The notes under the pieces are model-generated. The model searched no databases. It was not told the DNA's origin and was given only the letters and a program-made list of their open reading frames with translations. Both the position numbers and the translations under genes were made by a program. 64,000 nt of DNA from assembly GCF_055900595.2 (NCBI RefSeq), contig NZ_CM148325.1; one strand, written 5' to 3'. Each line of letters starts with the position of its first letter. Within the stretch, counting starts at the first letter, position 1. Positions 11,201-58,395 of the stretch are shown here, piece by piece.

Positions 11201-11792
11201 GAGTTTGACGGAAAACGTCAACATTCTGGTGCTGGATACGCAATGCTATTCCAACACCGGTGGTCAGGCGTCGAAAGCGACACCGCTGGGTGCAGTAACT
11301 AAATTTGGCGAGCACGGCAAACGTAAAGCGCGTAAAGATCTTGGCGTCAGTATGATGATGTACGGTCATGTTTATGTGGCGCAAATTTCTCTCGGCGCGC
11401 AGCTCAACCAGACAGTGAAAGCGATTCAGGAAGCAGAAGCGTATCCGGGACCATCGCTGATCATCGCTTATAGCCCGTGTGAAGAGCATGGTTACGATCT
11501 GGCACTCAGTCACGACCAGATGCGCCAACTCACTGCCACCGGCTTCTGGCCGCTATATCGCTTCGATCCACGTCGAGCCGATGAAGGCAAACTGCCGCTG
11601 GCGCTGGATTCACGCCCGCCGTCAGAAGCACTGGAAGAAACGTTACTTCACGAGCAGCGTTTCCGTCGTCTGAATTCGCAGCAGCCAGAAGTGGCAGAAC
11701 AGTTATGGAAAGATGCCGCAGCTGATTTGCAAAAACGCTATGACTTCCTGGCACAAATGGCCGGAAAAGCGGAAAAAAGCAACACCGATTAA
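8268..11792 (+). CDS. pfo: Pyruvate:flavodoxin/ferredoxin oxidoreductase
   Basis: 1174-aa ORF; two 4Fe-4S ferredoxin CxxCxxCxxxCP motifs (CTQCNHCVAACP, CTGCNLCVEVCP) and TPP-binding region. Confidence 0.95.
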   Translation: MITIDGNGAVASVAFRTSEVIAIYPITPSSTMAEQADAWAGNGLKNVWGDTPRVVEMQSEAGAIATVHGALQTGALSTSFTSSQGLLLMIPTLYKLAGELTPFVLHVAARTVATHALSIFGDHSDVMAVRQTGCAMLCAANVQEAQDFALISHIATLKSRVPFIHFFDGFRTSHEINKIVPLADDTILELMPQAEIDAHRARALNPEHPVIRGTSANPDTYFQSREATNPWYNAVYDHVEQAMNDFAAATGRQYQPFEYYGHPQAERVIILMGSAIGTCEEVVDELLTRGEKVGVLKVRLYRPFSAKHLLQALPDSVRTVAVLDRTKEPGAQAEPLYLDVMTALAEAFNNGERETLPRVIGGRYGLSSKEFGPDCVLAVFAELNAAKPKARFTVGIYDDVTNLSLPLPENTLPNSAKLEALFYGLGSDGSVSATKNNIKIIGNSTPWYAQGYFVYDSKKAGGLTVSHLRVSEQPIRSAYLISQADFVGCHQLQFIDKYQMAERLKPGGIFLLNTPYSADEVWSRLPQEVQAVLNQKKARFYVINAAKIARECGLAARINTVMQMAFFHLTQILPGDSALAELQGAIAKSYSSKGQDLVERNWQALALARESVEEVPLQPVNPHSANRPPVVSDAAPDFVKTVTAAMLAGLGDALPVSALPPDGTWPMGTTRWEKRNIAEEIPIWKEELCTQCNHCVAACPHSAIRAKVVPPEAMENAPASLHSLDVKSRDMRGQKYVLQVAPEDCTGCNLCVEVCPAKDRQDPEIKAINMMSRLEHVEEEKINYDFFLNLPEIDRSKLERIDIRTSQLITPLFEYSGACSGCGETPYIKLLTQLYGDRMLIANATGCSSIYGGNLPSTPYTTDANGRGPAWANSLFEDNAEFGLGFRLTVDQHRVRVLRLLDQFADKIPAELLTALKSDATPEVRREQVAALRQQLNDVAEAHELLRDADALVEKSIWLIGGDGWAYDIGFGGLDHVLSLTENVNILVLDTQCYSNTGGQASKATPLGAVTKFGEHGKRKARKDLGVSMMMYGHVYVAQISLGAQLNQTVKAIQEAEAYPGPSLIIAYSPCEEHGYDLALSHDQMRQLTATGFWPLYRFDPRRADEGKLPLALDSRPPSEALEETLLHEQRFRRLNSQQPEVAEQLWKDAAADLQKRYDFLAQMAGKAEKSNTD

Positions 11793-11820
11793 ATGCTCTG
11801 GATAAGGATAATCCAATTCT

Positions 11821-11930
11821 AAAAAAAAGCCCGGACGACTGTTCGGGCTTGTCTTTTTATATGTTGGAAAATCAGTGGCAATGCAATGGCCCAACAGAAA
11901 ATAAAATCTGTGACAATAAAGGCATATAAC
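11821..11930 (-). ncRNA. micC: MicC sRNA (represses ompC)
   Basis: Reverse complement of 11821..11930 reads GTTATATGCCTTTATTGTCACAGATTTTATTTTCTGTTGGGCCATTGCATTGCCACTGATTTTCCAACATATAAAAAGACAAGCCCGAACAGTCGTCCGGGCTTTTTTTT, matching my recollection of MicC; ends in hairpin plus T8; lies between pfo and ompN. Confidence 0.85.
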
Positions 11931-12157
11931 CCGCGCAGAATAACGTATAGCAAATTAAAAGTATAATTTTTATTTTGTATGTATTATCTTCGATACATTC
12001 ACCAGGCTTATTATCATTTCAGAGGAATTATTTGATTAAGGTTTTACTTAAGGCGTAACAAATGATATTTATCGGCTAACTGAACTTCTCCTTTAGGATG
12101 TTTTCACTCCCCGAAATGGGGATAAAAGGCAAATAAAATAACTAAAGGATTTATTCA

Positions 12158-13291
12158 ATGAAAAGCAAAGTACTGGCACTTTTAATTCCTGCCCTGCTCG
12201 CCGCAGGTGCTGCACATGCAGCCGAAGTTTATAATAAAGACGGCAACAAATTTGATCTGTATGGCAAAGTTGATGGCCTGCATTATTTTTCTGATAATTC
12301 AGCGAAAGATGGCGACCAGAGCTATGCGCGTCTGGGTTTTAAAGGCGAAACCCAAATTAACGATCAACTTACTGGCTACGGTCAATGGGAATACAATATT
12401 CAGGCAAACAACACTGAATCTTCAAAAAACCAGTCATGGACCCGTCTGGCATTTGCCGGACTGAAATTTGCAGATTACGGTTCTTTCGATTACGGACGTA
12501 ATTATGGCGTAATGTACGACATCGAAGGCTGGACCGATATGCTGCCTGAATTTGGCGGTGACTCTTATACCAATGCAGACAACTTTATGACTGGTCGTGC
12601 CAATGGCGTCGCGACTTATCGTAACACTGATTTCTTCGGTCTGGTAAATGGTCTGAACTTCGCGGTGCAGTATCAAGGTAACAACGAAGGAGCCAGTAAT
12701 GGTCAGGAAGGCACCAACAACGGACGTGATGTTCGCCATGAAAACGGTGACGGCTGGGGTCTTTCCACAACATATGATTTAGGCATGGGCTTTAGCGCTG
12801 GTGCGGCATACACCTCTTCTGACCGCACCAATGACCAGGTTAACCATACTGCGGCTGGTGGTGATAAAGCAGACGCGTGGACTGCTGGGCTAAAATACGA
12901 TGCTAACAATATTTACCTGGCAACCATGTATTCAGAAACGCGTAATATGACCCCGTTTGGCGACAGCGATTATGCTGTTGCAAACAAAACCCAGAACTTT
13001 GAAGTCACTGCACAGTACCAGTTTGATTTTGGTCTGCGTCCGGCAGTCTCTTTCCTGATGTCTAAAGGCCGTGACCTGCACGCTGCCGGTGGTGCAGACA
13101 ACCCGGCAGGTGTTGATGATAAAGATCTGGTAAAATACGCCGATGTTGGCGCGACTTACTATTTCAACAAAAATATGTCCACCTACGTTGACTATAAAAT
13201 CAACCTGTTGGATGAAGATGACAGCTTCTACGCTGCCAACGGCATCTCTACCGATGATATTGTCGCTTTAGGTCTGGTTTATCAGTTCTAA
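12158..13291 (+). CDS. ompN: Outer membrane porin OmpN
   Basis: 377-aa ORF with signal peptide [21 protein letters not shown] and C-terminal ...LVYQF typical of general porins. Confidence 0.9.
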
Positions 13292-13299
13292 ATCCTCCT

Positions 13300-13323
13300 G
13301 CCCGCTGTTATGGCGGGCTTTTT
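13300..13323 (+). terminator. Intrinsic terminator after ompN
   Basis: Hairpin GCCCGC-tgttatg-GCGGGC followed by TTTTT. Confidence 0.6.
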
Positions 13324-13350
13324 CTGCTTATTCTTCCTCCTTTGATCTAA

Positions 13351-13866
<516 letters not shown>

Positions 13867-13873
13867 CACTAAC

Positions 13874-13898
13874 GCCCGCACATTGCTGCGGGCTTTTT
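13874..13898 (+). terminator. Intrinsic terminator after uspF
   Basis: Hairpin GCCCGCA-cattgc-TGCGGGC followed by TTTTT. Confidence 0.6.
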
Positions 13899-14041
13899 GA
13901 TTCATTTCGCAAATGTGCTGACATTTTCCCCTCTAATCCGTACCATACACGCCACAGTTTTTATATCAGATTTCTTATGCTGGGCGTTCCGGCATGACGC
14001 ATACTCTTCTGATGCCATATAACGAATTGAGTCGCTTTTAA

Positions 14042-14977
14042 ATGTCGCAAAATCAAGAAATTAGTAAGAAAGAACAATACAACCTGAACAAATTACAAAA
14101 ACGTCTGCGTCGTAACGTGGGCGAAGCCATTGCTGACTTCAATATGATTGAAGAAGGCGATCGCATCATGGTTTGCCTCTCCGGGGGTAAAGACAGCTAT
14201 ACCATGCTGGAGATTCTGCGCAATTTGCAGCAAAGCGCTCCAATCAATTTTTCGCTGGTGGCTGTTAACCTCGATCAAAAGCAACCGGGCTTCCCGGAAC
14301 ACGTTCTGCCCGAGTATCTTGAAAAGCTGGGCATTGAGTACAAGATTGTGGAAGAGAACACTTACGGTATCGTGAAAGAGAAGATTCCGGAGGGCAAAAC
14401 CACTTGCTCACTGTGTTCTCGTCTTCGTCGCGGAATTCTTTACCGTACCGCAACGGAACTGGGAGCGACGAAGATCGCGCTGGGTCACCATCGTGACGAT
14501 ATCCTGCAAACGCTGTTCTTAAATATGTTCTATGGCGGCAAGATGAAAGGTATGCCACCGAAACTGATGAGCGATGATGGCAAACATATTGTGATTCGTC
14601 CGCTGGCCTACTGTCGCGAGAAAGATATTCAACGCTTTGCCGATGCAAAAGCGTTCCCGATTATTCCGTGCAACCTGTGCGGTTCACAGCCTAACCTGCA
14701 ACGTCAGGTGATTGCTGACATGTTGCGTGACTGGGATAAACGTTATCCGGGGCGTATCGAGACGATGTTCAGCGCGATGCAGAATGTGGTGCCGTCGCAT
14801 CTGTGCGATACCAACCTGTTCGATTTCAAAGGCATTACCCACGGTTCTGAAGTGGTTAACGGGGGTGATCTGGCGTTTGATCGCGAAGAGATCCCTCTAC
14901 AACCGGCGGGTTGGCAGCCTGAAGAAGATGAAAATCAGTTGGATGAGTTACGACTGAATGTGGTTGAAGTGAAATAA
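14042..14977 (+). CDS. ttcA: tRNA 2-thiocytidine(32) synthetase TtcA
   Basis: 311-aa ORF with PP-loop SGGKDS and conserved Cys motifs ([16 protein letters not shown]). Confidence 0.9.
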
Positions 14978-15060
14978 CCCGGATAGCGCCCGATGCGCAA
15001 GCTTATCGGGCTACTCTTATGGAGGCCGGATAAGACGCGGCCAGCGTCGCATCCGGCAAT
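14978..15060. repeat. REP (repetitive extragenic palindrome) cluster
   Basis: GCCGGATAAGACGCGGCCAGCGTCGCATCCGGC and a second imperfect copy between convergent ttcA and dbpA. Confidence 0.55.
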
Positions 15061-15105
15061 CCCGAAGAAGATGTTTACTCTTGCACCCTGCGATTCAACA
15101 TTTCA

Positions 15106-16479
15106 TTATTTTAATAACCGCACCCGGCACGTTTTTCCTTTAATCTTCCCGCCCTGTAACTGTTTCCATGCTTTATGAGCAACAGCCTGACGCACCGCAA
15201 CATAGACATGCGCCGGATGCACGGCGATTTTGCCAATATCTGCGCCATCAAGCCCGATATCTCCTGTCAGCGCACCTAATACATCACCCGGGCGCATTTT
15301 GGCTTTTTTCCCGCCATCGATACACAACGTTGCCATTTCTGCTTCCAGCGGCACAATGGAACTATTAACTGGCGGCGTTTGCCAGTTAAGTTTTATCTGC
15401 AACATGTCAGAAATGATATTGGCCCGCTGTGCTTCTTCCGGGGCACAGAAACTGATCGCCAGACCGCTATTTCCTGCACGCGCTGTACGACCGATGCGAT
15501 GTACATGAACTTCAGGATCCCACGCCAGTTCAAAGTTCACTACCAGCTCAAGCGATTTAATATCAAGACCACGCGCAGCAACATCCGTCGCGACCAGCAC
15601 ACGAGCGCTACCGTTAGCAAAACGTACCAGGGTCTGATCGCGGTCACGTTGCTCCAGATCGCCATGTAACGACAATGCACTTTGCCCTATGTCATTCAGC
15701 GCGTCGCAGACAGCCTGACAATCTTTTTTGGTATTGCAAAACACCACGCAAGAGGATGGCTGATGCAAACTTAATAACCGTTGCAACAGCGGAATTTTGC
15801 CTTTGCTGGATGTCTCATAAAATTGTTGTTCAATGGGAGGCAGAGCATCTGTTGAGTCAATTTCAATCGCCAATGGATCGCGTTGAACTCGTCCGCTGAT
15901 TGCGGTGATGGCTTCCGGCCAGGTTGCCGAAAACAGAAGCGTCTGTCGAGATGCTGGCGCAAAACGGATAACATCATCAATGGCATCGCTAAATCCCATA
16001 TCCAGCATGCGATCGGCTTCATCCATCACCAGCATATTCAACGCATCCAGTGATACCGTGCCTTTTTGCAGATGGTCCAGCAAACGACCTGGGGTTGCCA
16101 CGATAATATGCGGCGCATGTTGCAACGAATCACGCTGCATACCGAACGGTTGACCACCGCACAAAGTCAAAATTTTGGTATTTGGCAGAAAACGCGCCAG
16201 CCGACGCAATTCACCTGCCACCTGATCCGCCAGTTCACGCGTAGGACACAGCACTAAAGCCTGGGTCTGAAATAGCGACGCATCAATTTTCTGTAGCAGC
16301 CCGAGGCCAAAAGCCGCCGTTTTGCCGCTGCCGGTTTTCGCCTGCACGCGAACATCTTTTCCGGCAAGGATCGCCGGAAGCGCGGCGGCCTGCACCGGCG
16401 TCATAGTTAAATAACCCAACTCATTAAGGTTCGTGAGTTGGGCGGGAGGCAAAACATTCAGGGTAGAAAAAGCGGTCAC
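15106..16479 (-). CDS. dbpA: ATP-dependent RNA helicase DbpA (DEAD-box)
   Basis: 457-aa ORF with Walker A GSGKT, DEAD box (VMDEADRM), SAT and HRIGRTAR motifs. Confidence 0.9.
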   Translation of the reverse strand: MTAFSTLNVLPPAQLTNLNELGYLTMTPVQAAALPAILAGKDVRVQAKTGSGKTAAFGLGLLQKIDASLFQTQALVLCPTRELADQVAGELRRLARFLPNTKILTLCGGQPFGMQRDSLQHAPHIIVATPGRLLDHLQKGTVSLDALNMLVMDEADRMLDMGFSDAIDDVIRFAPASRQTLLFSATWPEAITAISGRVQRDPLAIEIDSTDALPPIEQQFYETSSKGKIPLLQRLLSLHQPSSCVVFCNTKKDCQAVCDALNDIGQSALSLHGDLEQRDRDQTLVRFANGSARVLVATDVAARGLDIKSLELVVNFELAWDPEVHVHRIGRTARAGNSGLAISFCAPEEAQRANIISDMLQIKLNWQTPPVNSSIVPLEAEMATLCIDGGKKAKMRPGDVLGALTGDIGLDGADIGKIAVHPAHVYVAVRQAVAHKAWKQLQGGKIKGKTCRVRLLK

Positions 16480-16509
16480 AATCTGTTCTCGTGGTCATCG
16501 ACGCAAAAA

Positions 16510-16683
16510 TTAGCAAGCGCGTATCCTCGCAGATCTACGCTCACGATGCGACAATTTAATCGGTTCTTCATCGGGTGGTGGGTCAGGCATGGGTTGCGGG
16601 CGAGGGATTGGATCGGGCACTGGAACAGGATCGCCAGGAATCGGTTCAGGGACAGGAATTTGCAAATAAATGAGTGTCGTCAT
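16510..16683 (-). CDS. Candidate small proline-rich protein (57 aa), unannotated
   Basis: Own translation: MTTLIYLQIPVPEPIPGDPVPVPDPIPRPQPMPDPPPDEEPIKLSHRERRSARIRAC; ATG at 16683..16681 preceded by GGAGGG with 4-nt spacer; stop TAA 16512..16510; below the 60-aa track cutoff. Confidence 0.35.
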   Translation of the reverse strand: MTTLIYLQIPVPEPIPGDPVPVPDPIPRPQPMPDPPPDEEPIKLSHRERRSARIRAC

Positions 16684-16740
16684 ATTTCCCTCCGGTCATT
16701 GGGTGGACTCTTAAAGGGTAGACGCTGATATATAACAGGC

Positions 16741-16862
16741 AAAAAAAAGCCGACTCATCAAAGTCGGCGTCGTACGAATCAATTGTGCTATGCAGTAATT
16801 CAAAAAAGGAAGTAAGACAATATGGAGCGCAACGCCCATCGCTTGACGTTGCATTCACCTGC
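16741..16862 (-). ncRNA. fnrS: FnrS sRNA (FNR-activated)
   Basis: Reverse complement begins GCAGGTGAATGCAACGTCAAGCGATGGGCGTTGCGCTCCATATTGTCTTACTTCC and ends in hairpin GCCGACTTTGATGAGTCGGC plus T8, matching my recollection of FnrS; lies between zntB and dbpA. Confidence 0.85.
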
Positions 16863-16897
16863 GAGAGAGATATTGCCCTGAATGGGTAGAGAGTTTA

Positions 16898-16911
16898 TTG
16901 ACTTCGCTCAA
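16898..16911 (-). promoter_or_regulatory. Putative FNR box upstream of fnrS
   Basis: Minus strand reads TTGAG-cgaa-GTCAA (consensus TTGAT-N4-ATCAA), about 40 nt upstream of the inferred fnrS 5' end. Confidence 0.55.
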
Positions 16912-16957
16912 ACTTTGCGGCGTTTTTGTATACAGATAGTAGGGAAAATTGCTGTTG

Positions 16958-17962
<1,005 letters not shown>

Positions 17963-18195
17963 TTATTTTGTAGTCTAGCCTTCTGGCCCTGTTACGCAAC
18001 ATCTCATCACCCCATTACCCTGAAATGATTAATAAAATTCTGTCTAAATTGAATACAAAAAGCAAAATGCTTTTCCATATACAAACCGTGTGAAGTGTTA
18101 AATAGCGTCTATCATTATCAGAATTATCTGATCATATGACGTGGCTTTTTTGCGATCGGATAGCAACAAAAATTGATAAAAATAACGGGATCTCA

Positions 18196-19428
18196 ATGAT
18201 TACGCACAACTTCAATACCCTGGACTTACTCACCAGTCCTGTCTGGATCGTTTCGCCCTTTGAGGAACAGTTAATTTATGCCAACAGCGCGGCGCGACTG
18301 TTGATGCAAGACCTCACGTTTAGTCAGCTACGAACCGGTCCCTATTCCGTCTCCTCACAAAAAGAACTACCGAAATACCTCTCCGATCTGCAAAACCAAC
18401 ACGATATTATCGAAATCCTCACCGTTCAACGTAAAGAAGAGGAAACAGCATTAAGCTGTCGGCTTGTTTTGCGAGAGCTGACAGAAGCAGAACCGGTGAT
18501 TATTTTCGAAGGCATCGAAGCGCCGGCAACGCTGGGTTTAAAAGCCAGTCGCTCGGCAAATTATCAGCGCAAAAAACAAGGTTTTTATGCGCGCTTTTTT
18601 CTGACTAACTCTGCACCAATGTTGTTGATTGACCCCTCACGAGATGGCCAAATCGTCGATGCTAACCTCGCCGCGCTCAATTTCTATGGTTATAACCATG
18701 AAACGATGTGCCAGAAACATACCTGGGAAATTAATATGCTCGGGCGTCGCGTCATGCCTATCATGCATGAAATCTCGCATTTACCCGGTGGTCATAAGCC
18801 TTTGAATTTTGTTCATAAACTGGCGGATGGTTCGACTCGTCATGTGCAGACCTATGCTGGGCCGATTGAAATTTATGGCGACAAGCTCATGTTATGTATT
18901 GTGCATGATATTACTGAGCAAAAACGGCTGGAGGAGCAGTTGGAACATGCTGCCCACCATGACGCGATGACCGGATTACTGAATCGGCGCCAGTTTTATC
19001 ACATTACCGAGCCAGGCCAAATGCAGCACCTCGCCATCGCTCAGGATTACAGCTTATTGCTCATCGACACCGATCGTTTTAAACACATTAACGATCTCTA
19101 TGGGCATTCTAAAGGTGATGAGGTGTTATGCGCCCTCGCCCGCACTCTCGAAAGTTGCGCTCGCAAAGGCGATTTGGTGTTTCGTTGGGGAGGCGAAGAG
19201 TTTGTCTTATTGCTACCAAGAACCCCACTGGATACCGCGCTTTCGCTGGCTGAAACTATCCGCGTAAGCGTGACAAAAGTGAGTATTTCGGGCTTACCAC
19301 GCTTTACCGTCAGCATTGGTGTGGCGCATCACGAAGGAAATGAAAGCATCGATGAACTGTTTAAACGCGTTGATGATGCTTTGTATCGGGCGAAAAATGA
19401 TGGACGCAACCGCGTGCTGGCGGCATAA
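18196..19428 (+). CDS. dgcM: Diguanylate cyclase DgcM (PAS-PAS-GGDEF)
   Basis: Track ORF 18136..19428; start moved to MITHNFNTLDLL (410 aa); GGEEF active site (RWGGEEF). Confidence 0.85.
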   Translation: MITHNFNTLDLLTSPVWIVSPFEEQLIYANSAARLLMQDLTFSQLRTGPYSVSSQKELPKYLSDLQNQHDIIEILTVQRKEEETALSCRLVLRELTEAEPVIIFEGIEAPATLGLKASRSANYQRKKQGFYARFFLTNSAPMLLIDPSRDGQIVDANLAALNFYGYNHETMCQKHTWEINMLGRRVMPIMHEISHLPGGHKPLNFVHKLADGSTRHVQTYAGPIEIYGDKLMLCIVHDITEQKRLEEQLEHAAHHDAMTGLLNRRQFYHITEPGQMQHLAIAQDYSLLLIDTDRFKHINDLYGHSKGDEVLCALARTLESCARKGDLVFRWGGEEFVLLLPRTPLDTALSLAETIRVSVTKVSISGLPRFTVSIGVAHHEGNESIDELFKRVDDALYRAKNDGRNRVLAA

Positions 19429-19448
19429 GCCGCGGATGCGTCTCGAGA

Positions 19449-20012
19449 TCAACGACTGCGCTTAGCGTGGCGCTCCCAGTTTTCTTGCTTTGCCTGCGCC
19501 GTTTTACGTAGTGCGACGTAACACGCCCCGCTGCCGCCATGATGCGGTAGCGCGGTACAATATGCCTGGACATCATCAAATTCGGTCAACCAGCACGCCA
19601 CATAGCTGCGGACAATATTGGCATGCGATTTATCTTCCCGCCCTTTACCATGAATAATCAGCACATTACGCAAACCATCCGCCAGGGCTTGTTGAATGAA
19701 ACTGAACACCATTTTGCGGCACTCTTCCACCGGCTGGCGCAAAAGATTCAGGCTCGCCTGTTGCGGATATTTACCACTGCGCAGCTTATCCAGCACCCCA
19801 TGTTGCAACCCTTCCCGCCGAAACTCCAGCAGCTGGCTTAGCGGGATGATGTCGAGAAATCCGGTGGTGAGGAAATTATCAAGTTGCAGCGTGTCGATAC
19901 GCTGCGGCGCACGTTGGTTACGCGTTGGATGCCAGTGGACATCTATAGCACGTTTCAGCGGCTGGACATCTTCCATGGCGTCAAGAAACAGCGATTTGTC
20001 GTCAAGGTTCAT
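19449..20012 (-). CDS. smrA: Smr-domain DNA endonuclease SmrA
   Basis: 187-aa ORF with Smr domain (LIIHGKGRE...). Confidence 0.85.
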   Translation of the reverse strand: MNLDDKSLFLDAMEDVQPLKRAIDVHWHPTRNQRAPQRIDTLQLDNFLTTGFLDIIPLSQLLEFRREGLQHGVLDKLRSGKYPQQASLNLLRQPVEECRKMVFSFIQQALADGLRNVLIIHGKGREDKSHANIVRSYVACWLTEFDDVQAYCTALPHHGGSGACYVALRKTAQAKQENWERHAKRSR

Positions 20013-20239
20013 GTTACATCCTCCCGCAATTAAGAGCGCGATATGATAACCAGACCGGGTCGGTCCAACAACGTATTACCCAAAATTCCAGTAATAAGTT
20101 CCAAATATTGCCGATATTTTAAGCAAAATGCTTATGCATGATTATTCATTCACGATATTAATAATGTAACTTATATTTTCGTGAAATCTGTCACTGAAGA
20201 AAATTGGCAACTAAAGGTTAAAACCGTTATAACACAGTC

Positions 20240-20333
20240 ACCGGCGCAGAGGAGACCATGCCGGATTTAAGACGCGGATGCACTGCTGTGTGTACTGTAG
20301 AGTCTGGCGGATGTCGACAGACTCTATTTTTTT
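20240..20333 (+). ncRNA. mcaS: McaS sRNA
   Basis: ACCGGCGCAGAGGAGACCATGCCGGATTTAAGACGCGGATGCACTGCTGTGTGTACTGTAGAGTCTGGCGGATGTCGACAGACTCTATTTTTTT matches my recollection of McaS; -35 TTGGCA (20204..20209) and -10 TATAAC (20228..20233) upstream; terminator hairpin plus T7. Confidence 0.8.
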
Positions 20334-20341
20334 ATGCAGTT

Positions 20342-21250
20342 TTAACTTTGCAGATAGCCGCATTCTCGCCGAAATTGCGTGATTAATGACGCGGTCAGTG
20401 GTGTCTGGCGACTATCACGCCGCTGAATCAAATAATAGGCCGCTTTCGGTAAAATTTCGCTAACCGGCAACATCACCAGCCCCTGTCCGTGCAAGGGATC
20501 GCAGCCCATTTCTTCAGGTAGTATGCTGAGAAAATCGCTTTTTGCCACCAGACTGATACAGGCTGAAAACGTCTCGCAGACTACGCCGACCTGTGGCGTT
20601 TGCGCCTGATCGTCAAGCAATTCACTCAACTGTTTGTAGTAGCTGCCGTGTGGCGTCGGCATTGTCCAGCTGTAGTCCAGTAACTGTTTGATCGAACGGG
20701 CACCAATGGCGGGATGTCCCGGGCGGCAAAAGATCGCGAATTGCTTTTCCAGTAATTTCTCAAAAGTAAATTCGTGGTCGTAGGGTCCCTGATAATAGGT
20801 ATTGATGGTGAAATCCAGTTCTCCCTGTCGCAATTCATTAATCATCGACACCAGTTGCCCTTCCATAATGCGTACTTTTACCTGCGGATGCTGCTGATGA
20901 AAACGAGATATGACAGCTGGCATCAGACTGCGGGAAATACTGGCCCCCATGCCGATATTAATTTGCCCTGCCAGTTGCCCTTGTCGTTGGCGAATATCCT
21001 CTTGCGCTGCGCGCAGCTCTTCAAGAATAAGACTGGCGTGCTGATAAAAACTTTCACCGGCATCAGTTAACGTCACGCCTTTACTACGGCGAAAAAAGAG
21101 TTGCGCCGCTAACCCTTCTTCCAGCTCCTGAATAGATTTACTCAGTGCCGGTTGCGACATATTCAACATGCGGCTCGCTCCGCGAATGCTGCCCTGACGA
21201 GCCACTTCAACAAAAGCCCGAATTTGATGAATTTTTACCTGAAAAGCCAT
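20342..21250 (-). CDS. abgR: LysR-type regulator AbgR
   Basis: 302-aa ORF with N-terminal HTH (LNMSQPALSKSIQELE); divergent from abgA. Confidence 0.9.
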   Translation of the reverse strand: MAFQVKIHQIRAFVEVARQGSIRGASRMLNMSQPALSKSIQELEEGLAAQLFFRRSKGVTLTDAGESFYQHASLILEELRAAQEDIRQRQGQLAGQINIGMGASISRSLMPAVISRFHQQHPQVKVRIMEGQLVSMINELRQGELDFTINTYYQGPYDHEFTFEKLLEKQFAIFCRPGHPAIGARSIKQLLDYSWTMPTPHGSYYKQLSELLDDQAQTPQVGVVCETFSACISLVAKSDFLSILPEEMGCDPLHGQGLVMLPVSEILPKAAYYLIQRRDSRQTPLTASLITQFRRECGYLQS

Positions 21251-26431: not shown

Positions 26432-26445
26432 TTGACAAATATCAA
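26432..26445 (+). promoter_or_regulatory. Putative FNR box at the fnr promoter (autoregulation)
   Basis: TTGAC-aaat-ATCAA, near-perfect match to TTGAT-N4-ATCAA, 20 nt upstream of the fnr ATG. Confidence 0.6.
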
Positions 26446-40556: not shown

Positions 40557-41555
40557 ATGTCCCCTACTATTTATGATATTGCCAGGGTTGCCGGCGTATC
40601 AAAATCCACCGTATCACGCGTGCTGAATAAGCAAACCAATATCTCCCCGGAAGCGCGCGAAAAAGTGTTACGGGCCATTGAAGAATTACAGTATCAGCCA
40701 AATAAACTGGCCCGCGCGCTGACCTCTTCGGGCTTTGATGCCATTATGGTGATTTCTACCCGCTCGACCAAAACTACGGCGGGTAACCCGTTTTTCTCCG
40801 AAGTTTTGCATGCCATTACCGCCAAAGCGGAAGATGAGGGTTTCGACGTGATATTGCAGACGTCGCACAACCCAGCTGAAGACTTACAAAAATGTGAAAG
40901 CAAAATTAAGCAGAAAATGATTAAAGGCATTATTATGCTAAGTTCGCCAGCAGATGAGTCTTTTTTCGCCCAACTCGATAAATACGATATTCCGGTGGTA
41001 GTAATTGGCAAAGTTGAAGGTGAATATGCCCATGTTTATTCTGTCGATACCGATAATTTTGGCGACAGTATTGCGCTGACCGATGCATTAATTGAAAGTG
41101 GACATAAAAATATTGCCTGCCTACATGCTCCGCTTGATGTCCATGTTTCGGTTGACCGCGTTAATGGTTATAAGCAAAGTCTGGAAGATCATAATATTGC
41201 AGTGCGCAATGAGTGGATCGTTGACGGCGGTTATACCCATGAGACAGCACTGCAAGCCGCGCGGGAATTATTAAGCCAGTCACCGTTGCCTGAGGCAGTG
41301 TTTGCTACTGACAGCCTGAAATTAATGAGCATTTATCGTGCGGCGGCAGAGAAAAACATTGCTATTCCGCAGCAGTTAGCGGTGGTGGGTTATAGTAATG
41401 AAACGCTGTCGTTTATATTAACGCCTGCACCGGGCGGCATCGATGTTCCGACGCAGGAGTTAGGTCAACAAAGCTGCGAGTTATTATTCCGCTTAATTGC
41501 CGGAAAACCGTCACCACAAAATATTACCGTTGCCACGCATATGTCGTTGAAATAA
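40557..41555 (+). CDS. ycjW: LacI-family regulator YcjW
   Basis: 332-aa ORF with N-terminal HTH ([21 protein letters not shown]). Confidence 0.9.
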
Positions 41556-41569
41556 ATGCCAGCTACGTT

Positions 41570-41653
41570 GCCTGAATGCCGGATGCGATGCTGGCGCATC
41601 TTATCCGGCCTACATTTATAAACCGGATAAAGTACTCGCGCCGCATCCGGCAA
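41570..41653. repeat. REP/BIME element (two REP units)
   Basis: GCCGGATGCGATGCTGGCGCATCTTATCCGGCCTAC and CCGGATAAAGTACTCGCGCCGCATCCGGC between ycjW and ompG. Confidence 0.6.
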
Positions 41654-43712: not shown

Positions 43713-44372
43713 CTATACGTTTTGCCAGAAGGCCGATAACCGCGGCCAGGTCAGAGATTCCGTTGAGGGCAGCAACAGTTGCGCCCCGGTTAAGCTCGTG
43801 CCGATCCCCACCGAGCGCATACCGCTGGCGTTAATGGCGTCAATACCCGCCTGCGCATCTTCAATGCCAATGCAGGCCTGTGGAGGCACGCCCAGCCCTG
43901 CACAGGCGGCGAGAAAGATTTCCGGGTCCGGTTTCGAGTGTTTAAGTTGGGAAGCGTCCGCGCAGAAGGTGAAAAACTCGCGCAGCTCCAGCGCCGCTAA
44001 AATTGTTGGGGCATTCAGGGAGACGGAGGCCAGCCCTACCGGGATGCCTTGCGCCCGAAGATCTGCCAGCAAAGGCCGAATTCCCGGCAGAACAGCGTTA
44101 ACCGTCAGTTCGCGCAGTGAGTGGACGTAGAGCAGATTTTTGCGATACGCCAGTTGCGCCCGCTCTTGCACGTTAAAGTCGCCCTCTTTGCCCCCGTGTT
44201 GCAGAATGCGTCGCAGGGACTCATCGCGGCTGATCCCTTTTAACGTCTCGTTAAATTGCACATCGATGCCGATGCCGATTTCGGCAGCAATCTGCTGCCA
44301 TGCCTGGAAGTGCAGATGTGCGGTGTCGGTGATCACGCCATCCAGATCGAAAATTACCCCTTGTAGTTTCAT
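43713..44372 (-). CDS. ycjU: Beta-phosphoglucomutase
   Basis: 219-aa ORF with HAD motif I ([12 protein letters not shown]). Confidence 0.9.
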
Positions 44373-44388
44373 TCATCCTCTTGATGCG

Positions 44389-44402
44389 TGGTAGCGGTCC
44401 CA
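44389..44402. promoter_or_regulatory. Putative LacI-family (YcjW) operator, copy 2
   Basis: Minus strand TGGGACCGCTACCA, identical to the 14-mer upstream of ycjM; inside the ycjT 3' end, 17 to 30 nt upstream of the ycjU ATG. Confidence 0.45.
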
Positions 44403-46267
44403 TTGAAGGGCAAAATAAAATCACCCAAACAGAAAACAGACTCTTCAGTCACGGAAATAAGCTGACCGTTCAACCGCAGTGAAACGGGCGCAGAAGTTCG
44501 AATCGCAATACGCTGCGCGTCGAGAGTGACCTGTAATTCGCAGCCCTGCCAGAACAGAGGGAAAGACAACTGTTGCCACTGCTCAGGTAACGCCGGATTG
44601 AGAAGTAATTCGCCGTCGCGCACGCTGACTCCGGCAAAACCCTGAATCGCGCCCAGCCAGATAGCGCCAGTTGCGGCAGCGTGGATACCGTCATCACAGC
44701 TATGCGGATCAGCACCGAGATCGATTTCACTCCCCTCGCGCCAGAACGGGTAACTCTGCGCAAGCAAGCCACAACGCGCGGCAACAATGCCGTGGATCGC
44801 TTTACTCAATGACGAGTCGTGAATGGTGCGCGGTTCATAAAATTGCAGATTGGCGAGACAAGAGGCCGCTGAAAATTGTTCCGGTAGCATGTAATTGAGC
44901 ATCACTACATCGGCCTGCTTGAGGATCTGCATCTCGTTCACTTCTGCGCGTGAATAATCCAGCAGAATGGTTTGCTTCCCGGCCGCCGCTTTGTATTTCG
45001 CCAGATCTATCGCCGGTTTCGCCATAAACGAATCATCCTGCGGCAAAACGCCGTCGGGCTGAATTTCTGGCATCCACAGCTCTTTGAGGAACATGTCGGC
45101 ACGATGAATAAACGCGTCGTCGCTACAGCAAAACTGGCGAGCAATATTCAGCGCCTGTTGGACGTTGTAGCAGGCCATATAACTGGTGTATGCGTTATTA
45201 TTAACGTGTTCGGTATATTCGTCTGGCCCAATAACATCATGAATTTCCAGGCGGTCGTTAACCCTTACCGCACGGCTAATCCAGAACTTTGCGGTCTCCA
45301 GCAGTAGCGCCATGCCTTCGTGAGCGATGAAGCTTTCATCTCCCGTTACCTGCCAGTATTGAATAACCGCCCAGGCGATATCGGCAACCAGATGATGTTC
45401 TGCCTGCGCTGAGGCCACTTTTTGCCGCAGCCCGGTACGAATGTTAATGGCGGCAAATTCCGGCGTTTCTTCTTCGCCGCTACGTGCGCTCTCCCACGGA
45501 AACAGCGCGCCCTGCCAGCCATTGCGTCGCGCTTTCTCCTGCGCCCCTGGTAAGTTGTGCCAGCGATAGCGCAGCAAACTCCGGGCAATCGTCGGTTCGC
45601 TAAACAGATGGAACGGCAGCATGAACACTTCCGTATCCCAGAAAACATGGCCTTTGTAGCCTTCCCCGGTTAAGGCTTTTGCCGCAATGCTGCTACGCTC
45701 GTCGTGGGCGGGCGTCATAATACGCAAATGATAAAGCGCATAGTCTAACGCCCGCTGATCGTGCGTATCGCAACTCTTTACCGTGATACGACGTTTCTGC
45801 CACCATTGCTGCCAGTTTTCTGTCGATGCTGCAAGAAGTTGGTCATAACTCTGTTGTGTAGACATTTCGAGCTGGCGAAGCGACCCACTGCCCCACTCGT
45901 CTAAAGCGGCTTGTCGGTCGTCCCGCCAGTCAATCCACACCCGCTTTTGCAGGGTCAGTGTTTCACCTGTGCGAAGTTGCGTGCTGGTATGTTGCAGCAA
46001 ACGGCGCTCTTTTGCGGTATAGCACTGCTGAACGTCACCATCCGCCTGACAGTGACAACTGATGGCCACATCACTGCGCCCATCCTGGGTGGTGTAGATC
46101 CCCTGCATCAAATGCTGACCAAACACCCGCACCTGGGTTTCGTCAAGATGCTGGCGACCGTGGTTGGTTTGCGTGGCGTTAATGCCTGTTGAGATCAGCA
46201 CTGATGCCTCGGCGTCCAGCGGGGTAATACTGATTTCCAGCGCGATCAACGGCAGTTGATCTGTCGA

Positions 46268-46978
46268 AATAAATATCCTCCGGCATAGCCGGAGGTTTTT
46301 CAAATGCGCCTGTAAGGCTCTGTTACCAGCCGCGCCCTAACAGGCGCATACGATCTGACATTTGCATTCAACTTCGTTACTTACGGCCCGTAAACGGGCT
46401 GCCCGGATATGGAATCGATAACTGCTCCCCCATTTTATCCTCTTCAAGCTGGTGCTTTATGTAGTCCTGTATCTTCGCCGTGTTCTTACCCACCGTATCG
46501 ACATAGTACCCTCGGCACCAGAACTCCCTGTTTCTGTATTTGAATTTCAAATCCCCAAACTGCTCGTAAAGCATCAGACTGCTTTTCCCTTTCAGATATC
46601 CCATAAAGCCGGATACGCTCATTTTGGGTGGGATTTCCACAAGCATATGGATATGATCTGCGCAGCACTCTGCTTCCAGAATCCGTACGCTTTTCCACTC
46701 ACACAGCTTTCTCAAAATACTGCCTATCGCCCTACGCTTCTCTCCGTAAAACGCCAGTCTTCGGTATTTCGGCGCAAAAACTATGTGATATTTACAGTTC
46801 CAGCGGGTGTGCGCTAAGCTCTTTTCGTCCCCCATTGGGACCCCCTTTTGATTTCTTGTTTGACACTTGCAGTTGCCAGACCGCAAGGTGTTTTAACAAA
46901 TCAAAAGGGGTTTTAATAACTGGCTCAAAGCTGAAAGCTTTCCGGAACCCCCAGCCTAGCTGGGGGTTTTCTGTGCAC
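46268..46978 (-). mobile_element. IS200-type insertion sequence (IS200/IS605 family), about 711 bp
   Basis: Boundaries inferred from where ycjT homology stops and resumes (within a few nt). Upstream of tnpA: palindrome CCCCCAGC-ctag-GCTGGGGG (46943..46961) and a stem-loop overlapping the tnpA RBS. Downstream end: hairpin CCTCCGGC-ata-GCCGGAGG (46277..46295). Confidence 0.85.
46377..46835 (-). CDS. tnpA: IS200 transposase TnpA (HUH Y1)
   Basis: Track ORF 46377..46886; start moved to MGDEKSLAHTRWNCKYHIVFAPKYRR (152 aa); HUH motif (ADHIHML) and C-terminal Tyr region (RGYYVDTVG). Confidence 0.9.
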   Translation of the reverse strand: MGDEKSLAHTRWNCKYHIVFAPKYRRLAFYGEKRRAIGSILRKLCEWKSVRILEAECCADHIHMLVEIPPKMSVSGFMGYLKGKSSLMLYEQFGDLKFKYRNREFWCRGYYVDTVGKNTAKIQDYIKHQLEEDKMGEQLSIPYPGSPFTGRK

Positions 46979-47343
46979 AACAAAGCGACGACTTGCAAGG
47001 GTGAACCCTGCGCCGTCGCTCGTGCGCCAGATAACACTGCGGCGTAATTCTCCACTGGCAAAGTCAAGCTCACGCTGCCACGCTTCGCGGGATAACGAAA
47101 AAATCTCGCCGTTTAGGGTAATTTCCATTCCCACCACGTCTGGCAGATTCACCAGTTCGTTGATTTCACCTTTCCCGGCTCGATGATAAAGCCCTGCCAG
47201 ATACATGCCGCGCGTCTGCCGCGTGTAATCTTCTTCATGGCTGGCACGAAGCCCAAGATAGCCGTTTCCCTGCGCCATTAATGAGGCATATTTATTCAGG
47301 GTATGCTGGCTGAAATGGGGTTCCGTTAATGTTACTGGCCTGG

Positions 47344-48399
47344 TCATAATTCCACACGCGTCCCTGTTTCTGCGGATTGATACAGCGCCGCCACCAGTTG
47401 CTGGATGATGTACCCTTGCTCGGCGTCGGCAATCATCACTGGCTTGCCCTGTACGTGATTGATAAAGGCTTCCATGCTGCGCAAATGACGGTTGTCGTCG
47501 GCCAGTTCCCGTTGCATCAACGTCATTAATTCACCGTTGTTGTCGGTATAGATATGCGCCGGAAATAGCGTGGCTCCCGCTTTATCGCCGCAAAAGCTGA
47601 CGTTCATAATCGACTGTTCGCGGATGTTGAGTGCAAATGATGTCTCCAGCCAAAGAATGCCGCCGTTATGAAATTCAATGGTGCCAAACAGCGAATCTTC
47701 GACGCTGTAGGTTGCCGGGTCCCACTCGCCAAATTGACCACAGCTCTTTTGCGGGCCGATCTTTTGAAAGCTATGCGCATTCACGCTTTTCACTGCCGGA
47801 AAGCCCAGCACATACATCGCGGCATCCAGCATATGAATGCCGATGTCGATCAGCGGGCCACCGCCCTGCAGTTCTTTATTGGTAAAGACACCCCAACCGG
47901 GAACGCCGCAGCGACGCAGGGCGCGAGCGGTCGTCACGTAAATCTGACCCAAAACGCCGTTGGTCACCTGTTCACGCAGTTGTTGCGTATCAAGGGCAAA
48001 ACGATGGTGAAAGTCGTAGGCCAGCACCTTGCCCTGTTTGCGCGCGGTATCGCACATTTCCCGCGCCTGTTCTGGCGTCATGGCGGGCGGTTTCTCGCAC
48101 ATCACATGGCAGCCTGCCTCCAGCGCCATCAGGGTATGCTCGTAATGAAAACGGTTAGGTGAACAGACGCTTATCACGTCAGGTTTTACCGCCAGCAGCA
48201 TGGCCTGCGGATCGTCCCACACGGATGCGTTCCCGTATTTCTCTGCCAGCGCCTGCGCCTGGGAAAGGCGGCTGTCACAGACAGCCACCAGTTCCAGATC
48301 GTTGCGGGTGCAGTAGTACGAAGCATGAACCTTATCCGCCACCTGGCCCGCGCCTATTATCGCGACCCGCAGCGGAGAGCTTGTCATTGCACTTTTCAC
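47344..48399 (-). CDS. ycjS: Gfo/Idh/MocA-family oxidoreductase
   Basis: 351-aa ORF with Rossmann motif (VAIIGAGQVADKVH); stop overlaps ycjT start. Confidence 0.9.
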   Translation of the reverse strand: MKSAMTSSPLRVAIIGAGQVADKVHASYYCTRNDLELVAVCDSRLSQAQALAEKYGNASVWDDPQAMLLAVKPDVISVCSPNRFHYEHTLMALEAGCHVMCEKPPAMTPEQAREMCDTARKQGKVLAYDFHHRFALDTQQLREQVTNGVLGQIYVTTARALRRCGVPGWGVFTNKELQGGGPLIDIGIHMLDAAMYVLGFPAVKSVNAHSFQKIGPQKSCGQFGEWDPATYSVEDSLFGTIEFHNGGILWLETSFALNIREQSIMNVSFCGDKAGATLFPAHIYTDNNGELMTLMQRELADDNRHLRSMEAFINHVQGKPVMIADAEQGYIIQQLVAALYQSAETGTRVEL

Positions 48400-58296: not shown

Positions 58297-58317
58297 CGAA
58301 GTTGGGCAATACAACTT

Positions 58318-58395
58318 GCCGGATGCGGCGTGAACGCCTTATCCGGCATACATAATCAATACGTCGTTTGCAGGCCTGATAAGCGCAGCGCATCA
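58318..58395. repeat. REP element pair
   Basis: GCCGGATGCGGCGTGAACGCCTTATCCGGCATAC and AGGCCTGATAAGCGCAGCGCATCAG between pspF and puuE. Confidence 0.55.

Follow-up and report, generated by a model that had tools for sequence, protein, structure and literature searches.

The window analyzed in this study is a stretch of 64,000 nucleotides of DNA, and three of its intergenic gaps are accounted for by the small RNA (sRNA) genes micC, fnrS and mcaS. The micC gene (11821..11930, minus strand) is 110 nt long and runs from G11930 at its 5' end to the last base of the U-run. The fnrS gene (16741..16862, minus strand) is 122 nt long and matches K-12 b4699. The mcaS gene (20240..20333, plus strand), which encodes the RNA termed McaS, IsrA or IS061, is 94 nt long, matches K-12 b4426 and carries the allele A18C. 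When the whole window is scanned with Rfam at the gathering thresholds, four matches are obtained, and those to MicC, FnrS and McaS have E-values ranging from 2e-19 to 4e-24. The MicC family (RF00121) matches 11813-11933 on the minus strand with 125.3 bits (cut-off 90) over model positions 1-123 of 123. The FnrS family (RF01796, 'frnS') matches 16745-16862 on the minus strand with 134.8 bits (cut-off 60), and the McaS family (RF00115) matches 20240-20335 on the plus strand with 117 bits (cut-off 42) over model positions 1-96 of 96. All three sites are therefore matched above their gathering scores. A permissive Rfam scan (E up to 1) gives no further sRNA in the window. Sub-threshold matches to naRNA4 (RF02564) are seen at 41545-41610, 58306-58348 and 15025-15061, with 29-39 bits against a cut-off of 59.5, and are most likely REP elements.

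The three genes were also compared base by base with the K-12 MG1655 sequence, in which micC, fnrS and mcaS are curated as ncRNA genes in the homologous region, and the identity is 99-100%. The fnrS gene is identical to b4699 at 122 of 122 positions. The only difference between micC and b4427 is in the terminal run, which has 8 T in the window and 9 in K-12. The mcaS gene is identical to b4426 at 93 of 94 positions, and the single change, A18C, is located in the loop of the first hairpin. The terminator scan and folding place a G+C-rich hairpin with a U-run at the 3' end of each RNA, on the annotated strand. The first-pass annotation of this DNA had named the three genes, with strands and coordinates that prove to be exact to the base, had pointed to their terminator hairpins and T-runs, and had rightly regarded them as known rather than novel. 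The base-level comparison validates this assignment. It is almost certain that the three blocks are the known Hfq-dependent, trans-acting sRNA genes micC, fnrS and mcaS, each with its own promoter and Rho-independent terminator. They are already known, textbook enterobacterial sRNAs, and nothing in the analysis contradicts their identification. Single-sequence folding of the three sRNAs gives only modest z-scores, from -1.7 to -2.8, and the opposite strands fold equally well or better, so that folding energy alone identifies neither the genes nor the strand.

The window is an E. coli chromosomal segment that extends from the puu/ycj region to the ydb region, inverted relative to K-12 and without the Rac prophage. 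The 23-kb Rac prophage, which lies between ttcA and uspF in K-12, is absent at the uspF-ttcA junction (13900-14050). Because of this absence, micC and fnrS are only 5 kb apart, and the Rac-borne sRNA genes ralA and kilS are missing from the window. According to the curated annotation, the syntenic span of K-12 contains no ncRNA gene beyond the three except these Rac-borne genes. Three is the complete count for the core-genome sRNAs of the region. The genes that flank them are the same as in K-12: nifJ and ompN for micC, zntB and ynaL/dbpA for fnrS, and smrA and abgR for mcaS. The nifJ/ydbK gene (8268-11792, plus strand) is convergent with micC, and the ompN gene (12158-13291, plus strand) is divergent from it. 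The zntB gene (16958-17941, minus strand) flanks fnrS, with ynaL/dbpA on the other side. The smrA gene (19449-20012, minus strand) and the abgR gene (20342-21250, minus strand) flank mcaS. The contiguous stretch 11000-21000 is present in only 3494 of 5426 complete E. coli genomes.

No ORF of at least 80 aa in the window overlaps the three RNAs, and no ORF of at least 20 aa is contained within any of the three transcripts. RefSeq/PGAP has no feature at the three sites in a strain that is 100% identical over 11000-21000, nor under the match in the sampled rows of the three genome-wide searches for micC, fnrS and mcaS. The earlier description of these genes as invisible to the ORF track is therefore fair, and it extends to RefSeq/PGAP in every strain row examined. 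Standard RefSeq/PGAP annotation leaves micC, fnrS and mcaS unmarked. Because PGAP leaves such genes unmarked, "empty" conserved intergenic blocks of E. coli should be screened against Rfam or K-12 before they are called novel.

Two observations concern the neighbors of mcaS. The abgR gene is an intact ORF of 302 codons in the window, and it is annotated as a pseudogene with an internal stop in strain Z0117EC0005. This strain is identical to the window over 11000-21000, and therefore the difference in abgR must lie beyond 21000. The gene dgcM/ydaM, which encodes a diguanylate cyclase and co-activator of csgD transcription, is one gene from mcaS, which encodes a csgD-repressing sRNA (18196-20333). 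Two members of the curli control network, dgcM/ydaM and mcaS, are thus near neighbors.

Parts and target pairing of MicC, FnrS and McaS

Pairing of the sRNAs was analyzed with the K-12 leaders of ompC, csgD and sodB, which serve as stand-ins for those of the source strain. Full-length RNAduplex analysis of each sRNA with a target leader was rejected, because it ignores intramolecular structure and yields "duplexes" of 70-110 nt; non-cognate pairs score like cognate ones, as exemplified by FnrS and ompC (-56.7). It was replaced by seeds of at most 25 nt and by counts of contiguous pairs, each compared with shuffles.

The 5' seed of MicC, nt 1-16 (11915..11930, minus strand), is complementary to the ompC leader, and the pairing continues to nt 22 if a gap is allowed. 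The seed forms 16 contiguous Watson-Crick pairs with positions -30..-15 of K-12 ompC, and the best of 200 dinucleotide shuffles reaches 12. The duplex of MicC nt 1-22 with ompC has an energy of -26.5 kcal/mol (z = -3.2), and 1 of 100 shuffles is as good. MicC has been reported to form a 22-bp duplex near the ompC start that blocks 30S binding, and its repression of OmpC synthesis is Hfq-dependent (PMC5745476). MicC of the window, transcribed from 11930 to 11821, would accordingly bind, through its invariant 5' end, a part of the ompC leader immediately upstream of the ribosome-binding site; 30S binding would then be blocked, and less OmpC porin would be synthesized. The control region between micC and ompN (11931..12157) is 227 bp long and contains a putative -10-like hexamer for micC, TATTCT, at 11937-11942. 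A 227-nt micC-ompN intergenic fragment has been used for reporter fusions (PMC5745476). Over the 200 nt upstream of micC, the sequence is 99% identical to that of K-12, with one SNP at about -76. The micC gene is divergent from ompN, a quiescent porin gene, and would be co-regulated with it.

To the 5' seed are added a central hairpin (nt 35-40 with nt 64-69; 11862..11896, minus strand), which is given by the Rfam model and by covariation, and a terminator hairpin (11827-11850), which together with the U-run spans 11821..11850 on the minus strand. At the 3' end the hairpin reads AAGCCCGAACAGUCGUCCGGGCUU and is followed by U's, according to the terminator scan and folding. Conservation of these parts was examined by searching for the degenerate seed GTTANATGCCTTTATTNTCA in one genome for each of 100,044 species. 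This search gives 45 matches, 34 in Enterobacteriaceae and 11 elsewhere. About 9 would be expected by chance for a pattern of 18 specified bases in a data set of this size. The enterobacterial matches are in Escherichia, Salmonella, Citrobacter, Klebsiella, Raoultella, Pseudocitrobacter and Superficieibacter. A hairpin of the form GACAAGCCCGAA...TTCGGGC with a T-run, ending 100-114 nt downstream of the seed, is found in 34 of 34 enterobacterial copies and in 0 of the 11 non-enterobacterial seed matches. The seed is invariant in the 34 enterobacterial homologues, even at the two positions that the search pattern leaves unspecified, although the invariance is partly built in by that pattern. In the alignment, the middle of MicC is variable and the terminator is almost invariant across genera. 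Over 34 distinct sequences, 86% of the cells are paired in the central hairpin and 99% in the terminator, as compared with only 28-52% in controls with slid registers, and compensatory changes are seen at 3 of the 6 pairs of the central hairpin. RNAalifold recovers the terminator alone from the 35-sequence alignment, and the central hairpin needed an explicit test. The nifJ/micC/ompN arrangement is found in 28 loci of other species, with the start of the porin gene 222-294 nt from the MicC 5' end. Two loci in Salmonella, from enterica subsp. arizonae and diarizonae, have MicC convergent with nifJ, and no OmpN homologue is found there within 3-4 kb upstream of MicC.

The FNR box of fnrS, TTGAGCGAAGTCAA, is located at 16898-16911 on the minus strand and is identical to that of K-12. 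Its center is at 16904.5, which by position arithmetic is -42.5 from the annotated fnrS +1 (G16862), a class II position. In Table 1 of Myers et al. 2013, the FNR site of fnrS is given at -42.5 and has an FNR ChIP-seq peak, and 11 indirectly FNR-repressed operons are attributed to FnrS (PMC3688515). An FNR-box-like site had been predicted upstream of fnrS at -41.5. The site is there, but the predicted position is one base off. A start of transcription at C16863 would be needed for the value of -41.5, and such a start is compatible with the position of the hexamer CAATAT. This hexamer (16870..16875, minus strand; -13..-8 from G16862) is a candidate -10 element read from the sequence.

The consensus TTGAT-N4-ATCAA at an 8/10 match has 53 sites in the window, so that the match of the fnrS box to the consensus is not distinctive alone. 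Counting 8/10 matches was therefore dropped as unspecific and replaced by counting the intact core TTGA-N6-TCAA. This core has 2 sites in 64 kb, one in the fnrS box and the other just upstream of fnr; a count of 2 is not significant alone, as shuffles give 1.4±1.1. The argument for the FNR box rests on its position and on the published ChIP-seq peak, alongside the intact core. The second core, TTGACAAATATCAA (9/10), lies at 26432-26445, directly upstream of the fnr coding sequence (~26465). The regulator gene fnr and the sRNA gene fnrS are 9.6 kb apart in the window.

The FnrS terminator hairpin, GCCGACTTTGATGAGTCGGC, and the U8 that follows it occupy 16741..16768 on the minus strand, and the 3' end reads GCCGACUUUGAUGAGUCGGC and then U8, as judged from the terminator scan and folding. 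In a crude test, the best seed of at most 25 nt between FnrS and the sodB leader has z = -1.8 at an energy of -21.6 kcal/mol, a value reached by 7 of 100 shuffles, so that it does not stand out from shuffled controls. Known FnrS target pairings are short and imperfect, and a crude seed test cannot resolve them. Upstream of fnrS, the base at -1 is C, as compared with T in K-12, and a few SNPs are present upstream of -75. Expression of FnrS is anaerobic and FNR-dependent (PMC3688515). FnrS, transcribed from 16862 to 16741, would be switched on under anaerobiosis by FNR bound at the class II site at -42.5, and would then repress mRNAs of aerobic or unneeded functions through short imperfect pairing.

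In McaS, the three hairpins of the Rfam architecture are present, followed by a U7 tail. The McaS terminator, the hairpin of nt 58-87 followed by U7 (20297..20333, plus strand), is identified by folding and by the Rfam structure line; a simple terminator scan missed this hairpin because of an interior bulge. The csgD-pairing stretch, nt 40-55 (20279..20294, plus strand), was identified by the contiguous-pair test. It forms 16 contiguous Watson-Crick pairs with positions -96..-81 of K-12 csgD, and the maximum in 200 shuffles is 10. The seed duplex of McaS and csgD has an energy of -34.1 kcal/mol (z = -4.3), and 0 of 100 shuffles are as good. McaS is known to bind far upstream of the csgD ribosome-binding site and to trigger cleavage of the mRNA (PMC6061853, PMC4152358), and the pairing site predicted here fits this published upstream binding. 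GGA motifs are located at nt 12, 24, 37 and 70, and all four are kept as in K-12. The four GGA motifs of McaS have been linked to CsrA binding (PMC10729762).

Candidate promoter elements of mcaS, -35 TTGGCA and -10 TATAAC with an 18-nt spacer (20204..20233, plus strand), are identical to those of K-12. A putative CRP-like site, CGTGA-N6-TCACT, lies at 20180-20195; it matches at 8/10 and is centered at -52.5 from the mcaS start. Relative to K-12, the upstream region is changed at about -110 and about -155, and the core is identical. Expression of mcaS is dependent on cAMP-CRP (PMC4152358). McaS, transcribed from 20240 to 20333 in a cAMP-CRP-dependent manner, would pair over at least 16 nt with the far-upstream part of the csgD leader, leading to cleavage and repression of curli. 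It may also activate flhDC, and its GGA motifs may titrate CsrA.

The A18C allele of McaS and other readings of the locus

Of 5426 complete E. coli genomes, 4910 contain micC, 5392 contain fnrS together with its promoter, and 5304 contain mcaS. The three blocks had been taken for conserved intergenic blocks, and this holds: each is present in 90-99% of the 5426 genomes, and MicC, the one compared across 7 genera, is conserved among them. About 516 of the 5426 genomes have no match or a partial match to micC. The one micC-partial genome examined, that of strain E08, has an IS1 between ompN and nifJ that interrupts MicC after nt 52.

The exact McaS allele of the window (A18C, window position 20257) is present in 362 of 5304 genomes. 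It is a minority natural allele (~7%). By thermodynamic prediction, hairpin 1 forms with a probability of 0.86 in K-12 McaS and of 0.23 in the A18C form. The new minimum free energy (MFE) structure of the A18C form pairs nt 5-54 and has an energy of -33.1 kcal/mol, as compared with -30.2 kcal/mol for the consensus fold. The predicted probability of hairpin 1 drops because C18 stabilizes an alternative long-range pairing. The lower stability predicted for McaS hairpin 1 with A18C is the only item of this analysis that is mildly new.

This prediction bears on the question of whether the genes are present but at least one of them is functionally altered, with McaS A18C presenting its 5'-most GGA and its csgD region less well than K-12 McaS. 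The predicted drop of hairpin 1 from 0.86 to 0.23 with a new MFE pairing of nt 5-54, the minority status of the allele (362 of 5304 genomes) and the C instead of T at -1 of fnrS all point in this direction. However, a gap of ~2-3 kcal/mol is within the error of the nearest-neighbor model, and binding of Hfq or CsrA remodels sRNAs in vivo. Position 18 is a loop position that is variable in the Rfam model, neither the GGA motifs nor the csgD seed is affected, and the energy of the csgD duplex is nearly the same (-58.2 vs -59.5). A null allele is moreover unlikely to be carried by hundreds of genomes. Altered function of this kind is therefore improbable. It is likewise doubtful that A18C would shift McaS from the canonical hairpin 1, which displays the 5'-most CsrA-binding GGA, to a fold with long-range pairing in which the csgD-pairing stretch is partly hidden, as the folding model suggests. 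If it did, A18C lineages would differ quantitatively in the balance of curli repression, flagellar activation and CsrA titration.

A reading in which the hairpins are mere terminators of the convergent genes, nifJ/ydbK at micC and abgR at mcaS, and the remainder is spacer without sRNA genes, has next to no probability. It draws on the fact that the MicC hairpin is also flagged as a plus-strand terminator, 35 nt past the nifJ stop (11792), with a T-rich tail on both sides, and on the location of the mcaS 3' end 8 nt from the abgR stop codon. The MicC hairpin is probably a bidirectional terminator common to MicC and the convergent nifJ/ydbK, and a shared bidirectional terminator is compatible with micC as a gene. 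At mcaS, a minus-strand T-run is absent from the flank of the hairpin that faces abgR. The full-length covariance-model matches take in the 5' portions of the RNAs. Across 7 genera, the 5' seed of MicC does not vary but the middle of the molecule does, MicC and McaS are each perfectly complementary to a known target over 16 bp, and K-12 has curated ncRNA genes at the same places. These results argue for micC and mcaS as sRNA genes rather than spacer.

It is hardly conceivable that one of the RNAs is dual-function and encodes a small protein too: McaS nt 11-21 (AGGAGACCAUG) do read AGGAG-N5-AUG and open a 42-codon frame (20258..20386), and FnrS has an AUG at nt 9, but all sense-strand frames that start inside the three RNAs run through the terminator with no stop within the transcript, the AGGAG of McaS is the published CsrA-binding GGA (PMC10729762) and its AUG sits in the stem of hairpin 1, and no such protein is annotated in K-12. 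A coding reading of the three sRNAs is unsupported, as no frame closes within the transcripts.

The IS200 copy and comparison with known systems

The fourth Rfam match is to STnc490/art200 (RF01405). It is located at 46845-46968 on the minus strand and is a full-length family match with 146.4 bits (cut-off 56). The first-pass list of three sRNA genes is complete for the K-12-homologous core sRNAs, but omits this fourth Rfam family. The match lies within a 711-bp IS200 copy (~46270-46980, minus strand), the boundaries of which were determined by comparison with intact ycjT; the junction is ambiguous by 2 nt. The tnpA gene of this IS200 starts with the ATG at 46835 and encodes a Y1_Tnp transposase (E = 8e-37). 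The match sits in the left end of IS200 and overlaps the 5' UTR of tnpA. The insertion splits ycjT, the gene for a GH65 kojibiose phosphorylase, into 47347..46981 and 46269..44369. In the otherwise identical strain Z0117EC0005, ycjT is intact, and IS200 is present at this spot in ycjT in only 1 of 5426 complete genomes.

STnc490 is now termed art200 and is an antisense regulator of the IS200 transposase; a ~90-nt antisense transcript has been described for Salmonella and for E. coli plasmid constructs (PMC4513863). Two elements from that report, the terminator hairpin of the left end and the stem-loop that sequesters the SD, are included in the match in the window (PMC4513863). In contrast to the published sRNA, which is antisense, the Rfam match in the window is on the tnpA-sense strand. 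An art200 sRNA of the published type would come from the plus strand, roughly from 46827-46916. Unlike the three sRNA genes, which are intergenic, the art200 match is inside an IS that interrupts ycjT.

The closest known counterparts of the three sRNAs are those of K-12. K-12 FnrS has the same sequence (122/122), the same FNR box at -42.5 and the same position between zntB and ynaL/dbpA, and differs in the T at -1, which is C in the window, and in a few SNPs upstream of -75. K-12 McaS shares 93 of 94 positions, the four GGA motifs, the 16-nt csgD stretch, the terminator and the position between smrA and abgR, but has A18 in the loop of hairpin 1, whereas the allele of the window has C18. K-12 MicC has the same sequence except for the U-run, the same 5' seed, the same terminator, down to an A·C mismatch within its stem, and the same neighbors on either side, nifJ/ydbK and ompN. 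It differs in having 9 terminal T, as compared with 8 in the window, and in one SNP of the promoter region at about -76; neither difference is of functional note. The arrangement of micC and ompN resembles that of micF and ompC, in that a porin-repressing sRNA gene is divergent from the gene for another porin, a parallel that has been drawn previously (PMC5745476), and micF is observed next to ompC. MicF, unlike MicC, belongs to another sRNA family and targets ompF.
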